DNA of 4,507 nucleotides from a virus. Its lineage: Duplodnaviria > Heunggongvirae > Uroviricota > Caudoviricetes. The position numbers were made by a program, and so were the translations under genes. The stretch's first letter is position 1; each line of letters begins with the position of its first letter. Below the pieces are notes generated by a model. The model did not search any database and was not told the origin of the DNA. It saw nothing but the letters and a program-made list of their open reading frames with translations. The DNA is taken from the IMG/VR virus record IMGVR_UViG_2706794673_000010. One strand, given 5' to 3'. Positions 1 to 4,507 of the stretch are shown here, piece after piece.

Positions 1-50
1 GGGAATATCTCCCCGGCAGCCTTCAGGGAAAAATATCATCAGATGGCTGC

Positions 51-404
51 TTAAAAAAAGAACAAATGGTAGTGTCCGCTATTGCCAGTACACCTCAATT
101 GCTCTGCGGCTTCGCTCAGAGCTGGCGTATGTTCCCGGCCTACTGATTCACACAGGTAATCAACGAAACCGGACACCAGTTTTCGTTCGCGAGGCGTGAT
201 CGCCCCACCGACCGGAGTCCAGTAATCGAAACCCAGTTGCAGGAGTTTGAAAAAACGCTTGTGGAATGCGTAGTTACACACACGCTTAAAGTCTGCGTGT
301 ATCCACTCACCTATTTTGATTTGATGCAGAAAATCGCAACTCTCCGGCGTCGCCGGGAGAAGTAATCCGGAAGAGGTTTGTTTGACCAGTTGTATATGTG
401 CCAT
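51..404 (-). CDS. hypothetical protein, 117 aa from ATG at 404..402 (ORF track extends it to a TTG at 446)
   Basis: Open frame ending TAA at 53..51. The ATG at 404 is preceded by GGAG about 7 nt upstream, whereas the TTG at 446 overlaps the upstream stop and has no such site. Product begins MAHIQLVKQTSS; no family recognised. Confidence 0.55.
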   Translation of the reverse strand: MAHIQLVKQTSSGLLLPATPESCDFLHQIKIGEWIHADFKRVCNYAFHKRFFKLLQLGFDYWTPVGGAITPRERKLVSGFVDYLCESVGREHTPALSEAAEQLRCTGNSGHYHLFFF

Positions 405-442
405 CGGCTTTCTCCGGTGGCACGGTGTTACACAGCAGGAGT

Positions 443-730
443 TCAATCCTGCTCAAGATTGTAGATGAGTTTATTCTTCAGCAAAAGCAGAAAACCAGCC
501 TTAAAACCAATCTCTTTCAAAACCCGTAATGATGTGACAAATTCGTCCTCACGCAAAATAAAACCGTCCGTCAGAAGTCCATTACAAAAATAAAATAACA
601 CAGCACCGCTCTTCCTTTGTTGAGATTGCAAACATCTAATGCGGCAATGGCTGACAATCGCTCCATTCTCAACGCGCACAGCATAGAGGCCATTTTCACT
701 AAAAATTTCACGCAATTCTTCGATTTTCAT
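443..730 (-). CDS. hypothetical protein, 95 aa
   Basis: ATG at 730..728 preceded by GGAAGGA about 9 nt upstream; stop TGA at 445..443. Same strand as, and 38 nt upstream of, the 51..404 gene, suggesting a two-gene operon. No family recognised. Confidence 0.55.
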   Translation of the reverse strand: MKIEELREIFSENGLYAVRVENGAIVSHCRIRCLQSQQRKSGAVLFYFCNGLLTDGFILREDEFVTSLRVLKEIGFKAGFLLLLKNKLIYNLEQD

Positions 731-1336: not shown

Positions 1337-2023
1337 TCACTCCTTCTCTTCTTTACCGTAGTGGAGTTGACCAATTTTGATAAGAGGGCGTCCCTGAGAT
1401 TTGCGGTGTAGATTGGTATCGCGCAGAGAATACACACAGCCACAATATTCCTGCTGATAGAATTTTTCGCGCTTGCTGATTTCAATCATACGGGACGAGC
1501 CGCCCTGCTTGCGCCAGTTATAATCCCAGTACACCATGCCCGGATAATGCGCGACGGCTCGCCGCCCACAGTCGTTAACCTGCTGCATATTTTTCCAGCG
1601 TGAAATGCCCAGTGAACTGCTGATCACACTGAAACCATTTTCAGCGGCGTACAGCGCTGTCCGCTCAAAACGCATGTCAAAACACATGGTGCAACGGATC
1701 CCTCGTTCGGGCTCCCATTCCATTCCTTTGGCTCGTTCAAACCAGTTGTCTGTGTCGTAATCAGCATCAATAAACGGCACGCCGTGTTGTTCAGCAAAGC
1801 GAATATTCTCATCCTTACGAATTAAATACTCTTTCTGAGGATGAATGTTCGGGTTGTAGAAAAAGATGGTGTAGTCGATTCCCGAGGCCTGAAGCGCCTC
1901 CATCACCTCACCGGAACATGGAGCACAGCAAGAGTGCAGTAGTAGTTTGTTTGCCCCGTTTGGGAGCTCCAATTTGGGCCGTTTGAAATCAGCAACTGTC
2001 ATAAATATGTTTATTGGGGTCAT
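1337..2023 (-). CDS. queH: DUF208 / QueH-like protein (epoxyqueuosine reductase family, Fe-S), 228 aa
   Basis: Uninterrupted 228-codon frame with TGA at 1339..1337. N-terminal [14 protein letters not shown] matches the cysteine motif I recall for DUF208/QueH, with further Cys at RCTMCF and YCGCVY. No clear Shine-Dalgarno before the ATG at 2023 or the alternative ATG at 2002 (MTVADF). Confidence 0.75.
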
Positions 2024-2584: not shown

Positions 2585-3007
2585 TCACAGTATCGCCTCC
2601 TGAAAATTACCCTGATAGAAAGCCAGTACACGCTGCATAGCTTCGCTCTTCCGGCACTCGCGACAGATTATATTCAGGCGCCTGTCGTAGCGGCGTATTT
2701 CTCCGTCAGGTAATGACCAGATAAGGTCCGGATCAACAACAACCGGTTTCCTCACCTTTACTCTCGAGAGTTTTTTGCGGGCGCTTTGCCAGTCCTTGCG
2801 AGCCTGTTCAGACGGGAATAAGCCGTAGCCAGAATTATATACATCACCACTTGCGACCAGTTCTATGCATAAGCGACCGACAGACGCACGACTGATACCT
2901 GTTTCATCTGACAACTGCCGAATCGTGACCCGACCGTCCTGATGCACGAGTTCCACAATTCGCGTCTTCAGTTCTTCCCGCTGTTCGGGAGTAAAAGGTT
3001 TCGCCAT
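2585..3007 (-). CDS. hypothetical helix-turn-helix protein, 140 aa
   Basis: ATG at 3007..3005 with AGGAGG 4 nt upstream, 14 nt after the DnaC-like stop. N-terminal segment TIRQLSDETGISRASVGRLCIELV looks like a winged-HTH DNA-binding helix pair; C-terminal CRECRKS. Stop TGA at 2587..2585. Confidence 0.65.
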   Translation of the reverse strand: MAKPFTPEQREELKTRIVELVHQDGRVTIRQLSDETGISRASVGRLCIELVASGDVYNSGYGLFPSEQARKDWQSARKKLSRVKVRKPVVVDPDLIWSLPDGEIRRYDRRLNIICRECRKSEAMQRVLAFYQGNFQEAIL

Positions 3008-3021
3008 AAATCCTCCTGAAA

Positions 3022-3699
3022 CTACTTAACAACCCTCGAATGGCTAACATTCGGACGCCAGCTCTCCCAGTTAAAATTCACCCAGCGNNNNNNNNNNNNN
3101 NNNNNNNNNNNNNNNNNNNNNNNNNNNNNNNNNNNNNNNNNNNNNNNNNNNNNNNNNNNNNNNNNNNNNNNNNNNNNNNNNNNNNNNNNNNNNNNNNNNN
3201 NNNNNNNNNNNNNNNNNNNNNNNNNNNNNNNNNNNNNNNNNNNNNNNNNNNNNNNNNNNNNNNNNNNNNNNNNNNNNNNNNNNNNNNNNNNNNNNNNNNN
3301 NNNNNNNNNNNNNNNNNNNNNNNNNNNNNNNNNNNNGATAGCTGCCGCTAAGTGATTCTTCCCGGTACCAGGTTTTCCGCTGAACGCAAAATTTGTACAC
3401 CCGGTCATCAGTTCATCGGCGATGGATTTCGCCTGGCTTAACGCGTATCGCTGGCCGTCGTTCTGCACCTGGTAATTCGCAAACGAGCATTTACGGTGCA
3501 ACGGCTGGATGCCTGAGCGATTCAGAATTTTTTCCACCCGCAACTGGCGATTCAGGCGGTTGATCTCCTCGCTACGTTTCTGGCCTTCAGCAAGTTGCCA
3601 CTCGCGCCACTCCGCTACCGTTCTGAATGGGGCGGTTACATGTGGCGGGGTCAGTCGGCGGATGCGTTCCAGAACGCCGCCTGTCGCAATATTTTTCAT
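3022..3699 (-). CDS. DnaC-like replicative helicase loader (phage P/DnaC family AAA+ ATPase); central part masked
   Basis: N-terminus MKNIATGGV...RSGIQPLHRKCSFANYQV and Walker A FSGKPGTGKNHLAAAI resemble E. coli DnaC as I recall it; C-terminus RWVNFNWESWR resembles the DnaC tail. The 249-nt N-run is a multiple of 3, so the frame is maintained. ATG at 3699, 6 nt after the upstream stop, preceded by AGGGGG. Confidence 0.85.
   Translation of the reverse strand: MKNIATGGVLERIRRLTPPHVTAPFRTVAEWREWQLAEGQKRSEEINRLNRQLRVEKILNRSGIQPLHRKCSFANYQVQNDGQRYALSQAKSIADELMTGCTNFAFSGKPGTGKNHLAAAIXXXXXXXXXXXXXXXXXXXXXXXXXXXXXXXXXXXXXXXXXXXXXXXXXXXXXXXXXXXXXXXXXXXXXXXXXXXXXXXXXXXRWVNFNWESWRPNVSHSRVVK
3088..3336. 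other. run of N (249 nt): masked sequence or assembly gap inside the DnaC-like gene
   Basis: Contiguous n characters. Confidence 1.
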
Positions 3700-4053
3700 G
3701 GTCCGTTACCCCCTGAAGCCTGGCGGGATCGCACTGTCCGGCAACGAGACGGTGTTAACCTGTCGGAGCAACGTCTCAGGCCGAACACCTTTCGGCGCGA
3801 ACAGGCCCTGGTATTCATTGGCGATGCTGTGTCGAATCACCTGCTCAGGTGTAAAACCCTGCTGACGGAATTTTTCCAGTTCCCGTATCGCCCCGTTAGC
3901 GCCCTGCTCCGTTCGAATCGGTTTTCGCAATGCCTGTCTGAACCGGACCCACTCATGCCAGAGTGTTTCCGGCAACCAATCGGGCAGCTCAATAGCCTCC
4001 GGCTCGAATTTTTTAGACGCTCGTTTTTGGCGAGGGGGAGATCAGTATTTAGA

Positions 4054-4074
4054 TCTTCCTCTTCCTCTTCCTCT
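4054..4074. repeat. hexanucleotide tandem repeat (TCTTCC)3 plus TCT, encoding a poly-Glu tract on the minus strand
   Basis: Plus strand tcttcctcttcctcttcctct; minus-strand codons GAG GAA x3 give EEEEEE in the initiator linker. Confidence 0.9.
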
Positions 4075-4180
4075 GGTAACGCTTTTTGATCCGTTTGTGT
4101 AACGCTGGCAGCGTTACCTTTTCGTTTCAGTTCGCGTATTTTTGTTACTCGCTCGTTTGTAACCGCCCGTTTTTTTTAGA
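4075..4180. other. candidate phage replication origin inside the initiator gene (palindrome, iteron-like repeats, T-rich tract)
   Basis: 19-bp perfect palindrome GTAACGCTG-G-CAGCGTTAC at 4099..4117, with a further GGTAACGC at 4075..4082. CGTTT-containing motifs start at 4092, 4123 and 4154 (31-bp spacing). T-rich stretch 4120..4190 includes T8. Lambdoid origins are known to lie within the initiator gene. Confidence 0.3.
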
Positions 4181-4382
4181 GCTTTTTCCGTTATGACGTT
4201 CAAAGTTAGGTAGAGAAAGCCCTCCGTCATTTTCGACCAGCCATCCAACCTGAATTAACGCATCAGCAAAACCAGACATAAAAGTGATGCGATCTATTGC
4301 ACTTTTTGTAACGCCGCGAGCGTTACAATCTGCATTACCGTCTATCATTTGTTGATCCGCCCATGCCCAGAAGCGAATAACC

Positions 4383-4507
4383 TGAGGTAGCCTGAGTTTA
4401 ACGGACACTCCTTCCTGAAATAGAATGGCATCAGAAGGAGCTAATAATGAGCAGAAAAACCCAACGTTACTCTAAAGAGTTCAAAGCCGAAGCTGTCAGA
4501 ACGGTTC
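4383..4507 (+). mobile_element. left end of an IS3-family insertion sequence (IS600-like), running off the window
   Basis: Begins TGAGGTAGCCTGAGTTTAACGGACACTCC, as expected for an IS3-family inverted repeat (TG...); the orfA start lies 64 nt inside. The boundary is estimated to within a few bp. Confidence 0.7.
4447..4507 (+). CDS. IS3-family transposase OrfA, N-terminal 20 codons (partial)
   Basis: AAGGAG 7 nt upstream of the ATG; translation MSRKTQRYSKEFKAEAVRTV matches my recollection of the IS600 OrfA N-terminus. Confidence 0.7.
   Translation, partial: MSRKTQRYSKEFKAEAVRTV

Follow-up and report, generated by a model that had tools for sequence, protein, structure and literature searches.

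The closest described systems to the locus reported here are the ydaU-ydaV replication module of Rac and the O-P module of lambda. All three share the same gene order, in which a repressor gene, cro and ydaT precede the initiator gene and the gene for a DnaC-like helicase loader. In contrast to the Rac and lambda modules, the initiator gene of the present locus is broken in three places. Related phages annotate this gene as 'DNA replication protein O', and the literature library that was searched has no paper combining ydaU, ydaV and replication.

Elements of the IS3 family move by copy-out, paste-in transposition with a DDE transposase. The usual target duplication of IS600, a member of this family, is 3 bp (ISfinder). 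A paper on IS600 in lacZ of O121 does not state the size of the target duplication. In Shigella, IS1, IS2, IS4, IS600 and IS911 are the five IS that have expanded in all species, and IS600 is an important source of pseudogenes in the genus (Hawkey et al. 2020, PLoS Genet, PMC7373316). Each of the Shigella reference genomes holds at least 199 pseudogenes, that is, CDS inactivated by IS or by other mutations, and S. sonnei has the highest recent IS activity among the three species compared (PMC7373316). The emphasis of that study is on metabolic and virulence-related loss, and the word 'prophage' is absent from its main text, whereas the gene lost here is a prophage replication gene.

The window, by which we mean the whole stretch of 4,507 nucleotides that was analysed (IMG/VR record IMGVR_UViG_2706794673_000010), is a 4.3-kb prophage segment between two direct copies of IS600. 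It looks like a whole short-read contig that was broken at IS600 repeats. Our main reading, to which we give a probability of about 0.93, is that a complete IS600 transposed into codon 35/36 of the ydaU-like initiator gene of a Rac-like prophage in an S. sonnei chromosome, with duplication of ACC and loss of the initiator. The analysis demonstrates which IS is involved, the exact position of the junction, the duplication of the target, the in-silico restoration of the gene, the extra lesions and the host. The right edge of the window falls within the IS, and the window itself contains only one junction of this insertion. The features at this edge are as follows.

4383..4507, plus strand: left end of IS600, with the imperfect terminal inverted repeat, the 5' leader and the start of orfA (125/125 against pWR501 and pCP301)
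about 4383-4411: imperfect terminal inverted repeat of IS600, with its TG at 4383-4384
4447..4507, plus strand: first 20 codons of IS600 orfA by translation, MSRKTQRYSKEFKAEAVRTV, with the ATG at 4447-4449
4380..4382, strand not applicable: left copy of the 3-bp target-site duplication ACC, from the flanks in the S. sonnei locus L004 against the intact target

The initial annotation had proposed an IS3-family, IS600-like end at 4383, and its start coordinate proved exact to the base. Positions 4383-4507 are identical at 125/125 positions to the left end of IS600 in Shigella and E. coli plasmid records (E 1e-58, at least 359 records), where the matching region is annotated as 'IS600 ORF1' or 'IS3-like element IS600 family transposase'. 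The copies of the Shigella virulence plasmids pWR501 and pCP301 are both among these perfect matches. Pairwise alignment with the pWR501 copy gives identity from T4383 (TGAGGTAGCC...), and the sequence to the left is unrelated except for a chance match at C4382. The two sequences quoted in that annotation, the IS terminus and the start of OrfA, are also correct. In the window and in pWR501 alike, the orfA CDS begins at nt 65 of the IS. Judged by this identity, the element at the right edge is IS600 itself, beyond merely an IS600-like one.

The flank beyond the window was retrieved through an exact look-up of the 87-aa ORF that crosses the junction (described below). Eight S. sonnei loci from independent assemblies were fetched, including L004, L005 and L009, and several of them lie on contigs of 4.8 Mb. 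Both L004 and L005 are 100% identical to all unmasked bases of the window. The IS600 copy in L004 begins at the base equivalent to window position 4383. It is complete at 1264 bp, has TG...CA ends, terminates in ...ACCTCA, and its left and right terminal inverted repeats match at 20/29 positions. It encodes OrfA of 100 aa and, in the -1 frame, OrfB of 272 aa; the two ORFs overlap, with an A7G slippery site at nt 317. OrfA matches NCBIfam transpos_IS3 and Pfam HTH_Tnp_1, and OrfB matches NCBIfam transpos_IS3 with 334 bits (cut-off 160) and Pfam rve, the DDE domain. The full element differs from the pWR501 copy by 6 mismatches over 1244 positions. The L004 copy is thus complete and apparently functional. 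Nothing notable sets it apart from the IS600 copies on pWR501, pCP301 and the Shigella chromosomes, and it is another chromosomal copy.

The same assemblies supplied the right end of the IS, the 3-bp duplication and the 5' portion of the initiator gene that the IS displaced, for which the initial annotation had advised a search in flanking sequence. These three lie outside the window and are known only from the matching public assemblies. L004 reads ...GCGAATAACC, then the IS from TGAGG... to ACCTCA, then ACCTTCCC..., and the intact target is GCGAATAACCTTCCC, so that ACC is duplicated. The longer right flank after the IS in L004 is ACCTTCCCTAATG.... ACC stands on both sides of the IS in L004 and five further loci, and both junctions are present in 6/8 loci. 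The first 35 codons of the initiator gene lie directly beyond the right end of the IS in L004. Removal in silico of the IS and one ACC gives a continuous gene that, together with its upstream region, is identical to the intact E. coli allele at 829/842 positions. The 13 differences consist of one substitution, the 10 bp of a deletion and two extra T, the last two of which are described below.

The far side of the IS differs in two of the loci. L005 has a further rearrangement: it lacks the 5' initiator fragment, ydaT, cro and the repressor gene, and has another IS3-family element in their place (7700-8800). In L009 (GCA_001248565.1, 8765-10264), N follows directly after the IS, and then comes the 3' end of a different ydaV (95% identical) in a Rac-like prophage. 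L009 was considered as an identical junction in a second prophage context and was set aside, since the N sits exactly at the IS end and may reflect scaffolding. The join on its far side is possibly a scaffolding join or the product of IS600-mediated recombination.

The interrupted gene and its downstream neighbour are placed in the window as follows.

3706..4382, minus strand: 3' remnant of the ydaU-like initiator gene, which begins at nt 105 of the intact 789-nt ORF and runs to the stop (98% against the intact E. coli allele)
3022..3699, minus strand: ydaV, gene for a DnaC-like helicase loader directly downstream of the broken initiator gene (phrog_50, 2.2e-32)

Hundreds of E. coli chromosomes have an uninterrupted 789-bp gene that shares 97-98% identity with the minus strand of 3700-4383. 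Identity is 98.1% to the intact allele of E. coli FDAARGOS_944, and 93% at the nucleotide level to ydaU of 'Escherichia phage Rac' MN652886. All of these matches end at 4382/4383, which bears out the proposal that the IS interrupts the minus-strand initiator frame. The insertion lies at ORF nt 105-107, in codons 35/36. It splits the gene 13% in and leaves 87% as the remnant, which three-frame translation shows is now read in three frames.

The intact allele encodes 262 aa, all of which align with phrog_2509, 'replication initiation protein' (1.2e-89, residues 1-262 against profile positions 1-277/277). One RefSeq record names the intact product 'phage replication initiator YdaU family protein'. 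The order of the genes here is repressor, cro, ydaT, the ydaU-like initiator gene and ydaV. Taken with the PHROG family match, this order makes a replication initiator the well-supported, if predicted, assignment for the YdaU-like protein. No Pfam family matches the intact 262-aa protein at E up to 0.01, DUF1376 (PF07120) included, and there is no NCBIfam match above cut-off. The name 'YdaU' is therefore taken here from annotation and not from Pfam DUF1376 membership. The 285-aa protein at the ydaU position in the Rac-like prophage of L009 does match DUF1376, in contrast to the present protein.

Several further observations concern the C-terminal part of this protein. Its last 19 or so residues (3706-3765, minus strand) have a weak likeness to the DnaT C-terminus (NCBIfam NF002770, E 0.002-0.006, far below cut-off), and residues 118-262 match phrog_6451, 'primosomal protein'. 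These matches hint that the tail may recruit the helicase-loading machinery. A hexamer repeat, (CTTCCT)n at 4055-4074, encodes a poly-Glu linker of the initiator and is a variable-number repeat inside the pseudogene. It has three copies in the window, L004, L005 and L009, six in four other S. sonnei assemblies and seven in L011.

Perfect palindromes with 7-bp arms, GTAACGC-N5-GCGTTAC, occur in three copies spaced about 200 bp apart, compared with a chance expectation of 0.01 per window. Two of them, at 4099-4117 and 4308-4326, are inside the initiator gene, and the third is located just upstream of its ribosome-binding site (L004 8624-8642; L001 3309-3327). The arms are invariant, and the loops vary between sites and among E. 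coli, Rac and S. sonnei. These palindromes could serve the initiator as origin or operator sites, or could form RNA hairpins. With IS600 in place, the upstream palindrome is parted from the other two. A search of the window with Rfam at the gathering threshold found nothing.

The remnant carries two further lesions.

4170..4177, strand not applicable: run of T8 (A8 on the coding strand), T6 in the intact allele, giving a +2 frameshift (alignments with intact alleles)
4033..4039, strand not applicable: scar of a 10-bp deletion between direct repeats AGGGGGA, giving a second frameshift; the intact sequence is AGGGGGATTTAGGGGGA

Both lesions are found in 8/8 S. sonnei loci, including those on 4.8-Mb contigs, which rules out errors of a single assembly. 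Among complete E. coli genomes, no match to the 151-mer of 4100-4250 reaches 99% identity, and the best matches span 149 nt as against 151. A 37-mer across the deletion scar has no match in the same genomes. A 60-mer across the 10-bp deletion gives two-piece matches spanning 70 nt, which are undeleted alleles. Neither frameshift was found without IS600. With these two frameshifts, the loss of the gene is irreversible even after precise excision of IS600. The initial annotation had not remarked on the 10-bp deletion, the expansion from T6 to T8 or the second IS600 copy at 1-97.

The junction has also produced two reading frames that are annotated as proteins in their own right. The one contained in the window is the following.

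4145..4408, minus strand: chimeric 87-aa ORF from a GTG at 4408, starting with VSVKLRLPQ (exact match on 492 contigs)

The first eight codons of this ORF and two bases of the ninth are IS600 sequence, in agreement with the claim of the initial annotation that the codons for VSVKLRLPQ belong to the IS. They are followed by YdaU residues 36 to about 105 and then by a frameshifted tail, NGRLQTSE. The exact 87-aa sequence is found on 492 contigs under names such as 'putative bacteriophage protein [Shigella sonnei]'. In most collection blocks holding it, the longest carrying contig is 2-5 kb, and in 14 blocks it exceeds 1 Mb. The displaced 5' part of the gene appears as a 41-aa ORF, MASNWIKLEV...ALGKVEVYWQ, which combines 35 native residues with 6 from the IS sequence and is likewise named as an S. 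sonnei protein (344 contigs). The chimeric ORF belongs to a cluster at 90% identity, and the other members that were read are contig-end fragments of uninterrupted alleles, except for one 67-aa alternative call on this same pseudogene. As ends of uninterrupted alleles, such members are of no help in ordering the lesions.

The exact chimeric ORF and the exact 41-aa fragment, both named as Shigella sonnei proteins, confirm the earlier suggestion of a Shigella-like host. The IS600/ydaU junction is present in 0 of 5,426 complete E. coli genomes, and genome_contigs, which has one genome per species, gave no exact match to the 39-nt junction. The same suggestion had described the host as rich in IS. 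Other IS copies are spread throughout the prophage in L004. Besides three copies or fragments of IS600, this neighbourhood contains an element of the IS110 family and further ones of the IS3 family, and its only integrase gene is truncated. The prophage is Rac-like and lambdoid, and it is heavily degraded apart from the IS600 lesion.

The other end of the window is formed by the second copy of the IS.

1..97, plus strand: final 97 nt of a second IS600, which points the same way as the copy at 4383 (0 mismatches against the end of the L004 IS600; BLAST)

This copy cuts short a DUF1367 gene (ORF 446..51 on the minus strand, matching profile positions 1-102 of 198). It is flanked by AAC and ATT, with no target duplication, and on its far side in complete assemblies is a 160-aa integrase fragment adjoining modC. 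Since it joins the integrase fragment to the truncated DUF1367 gene, this copy appears to mark a rearrangement or deletion. The segment between the two copies contains the ydaU remnant, ydaV, a DUF977 gene, queH, hok/sok and rem. The gene for epoxyqueuosine reductase, queH, at 1337-2023 (minus strand) is intact prophage cargo (Pfam QueH, 1.9e-65). Its neighbours are the DUF977 winged-helix gene at 2585-3007, a zinc-ribbon-like ORF at 2171-2584 (phrog_1621) and a masked hok region.

Masking affects two parts of the window, with runs of N at 991-1255 and 3088-3336. By comparison with the 100% identical L004, the former covers most of the hok/gef toxin gene and the region just upstream, with 265 N in place of 291 nt. 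The latter covers the interior of ydaV, with 249 N in place of 318 nt. Because the runs are shorter than the sequence they replace, window coordinates are offset from those of the real locus, and the ydaV ORF seems 23 codons short. The unmasked ydaV product of L004 has 248 aa and matches Pfam IstB_IS21 and Bac_DnaA.

How the gene was lost can be read in more than one way, and the order of the lesions is the only live alternative to the main reading. By the time IS600 arrived, the 10-bp deletion, the T8 run or both may have turned the gene into a pseudogene, and the insertion would then be neutral and not the inactivating event. Both frameshifts accompany the IS in all eight S. sonnei loci, the data give no order for the three events, and the surrounding prophage is extensively degraded, all of which leave room for this sequence of events. 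However, the deletion scar and the T8 allele are absent from complete E. coli genomes and are never seen without the IS, which gives no sign that they predate it, and after any one lesion the remaining ones would accumulate neutrally. We regard a pre-existing pseudogene as possible, and lean towards insertion as the inactivating step. It is very unlikely, on the other hand, that the right-hand copy arose from an IS-mediated rearrangement, such as a deletion or inversion between two copies, rather than by simple transposition. The left-hand copy appears to have such a history, lacking a target duplication and joining an integrase fragment to a truncated DUF1367 gene, and the sequence beyond the right-hand copy differs in L005 and L009. 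Nevertheless, ACC is found on both flanks in 6/8 loci, removal of the IS rejoins the gene halves exactly, and the L005 and L009 variants are best read as later events or scaffolding.

An assembly artefact, in which a contig end collapsed on the IS600 repeat was misjoined to ydaU, is effectively refuted. It would fit a window that starts and ends inside IS600 (97 and 125 nt), the usual pattern where short-read contigs break, and the N immediately after the IS in L009. The junction is nonetheless also present in assemblies with 4.8 Mb contigs, the chimeric ORF recurs on hundreds of contigs, and a complete IS, the duplication and the matching 5' gene fragment are present across the junction in many independent assemblies. 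Equally remote is the idea that the ORF from GTG 4408 is a functional, N-terminally altered fragment of the initiator transcribed from an outward promoter at the IS600 end. Gene callers do report this ORF, and many genomes have it annotated as a protein. Against this, it keeps only about 70/262 residues, has lost the first 35 and the whole C-terminal two-thirds, ends in the frameshifted tail and matches no family model, and its start is disputed among callers, with a 67-aa version from an internal ATG. The 87-aa product is an artefact of ORF calling that begins in IS sequence. Finally, the segment between the IS copies might be viewed as a composite IS600-bounded unit that was moved or kept as a block, with the insertions that disable replication and integrase functions selected because they lock useful cargo (QueH, the Hok/Sok addiction module) in the S. 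sonnei chromosome. We consider this improbable compared with neutral decay.

Under the main reading, the insertion of a complete IS600 into an initiator gene, the element transposed into the gene and duplicated its ACC target. The promoter, the ribosome-binding site and the first 35 codons, all outside the window, are thereby cut off from the remaining 87% of the gene. The transposase genes of the IS, on the plus strand, are directed away from the 3' remnant, and transcription from the cro/ydaT side has to traverse 1.26 kb of antisense IS before the remnant and ydaV. Split 13% in and carrying two further frameshifts, the gene can yield no full-length initiator. Its loss probably abolishes autonomous replication of the prophage, and it is consistent with neutral decay within the known IS expansion of Shigella.

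This is an ordinary and already documented kind of gene loss in sequenced Shigella genomes. It is also a textbook IS600 insertion, in which the element is complete, 3 bp are duplicated and the gene is restored exactly in silico. The finding is mainly of value as a correction of annotation and has little importance otherwise. The 'bacteriophage proteins' of 87 aa and 41 aa annotated in hundreds of S. sonnei genomes are the two parts of a single pseudogene that IS600 has split. The case illustrates how IS expansion grounds Shigella prophages and fragments short-read assemblies.
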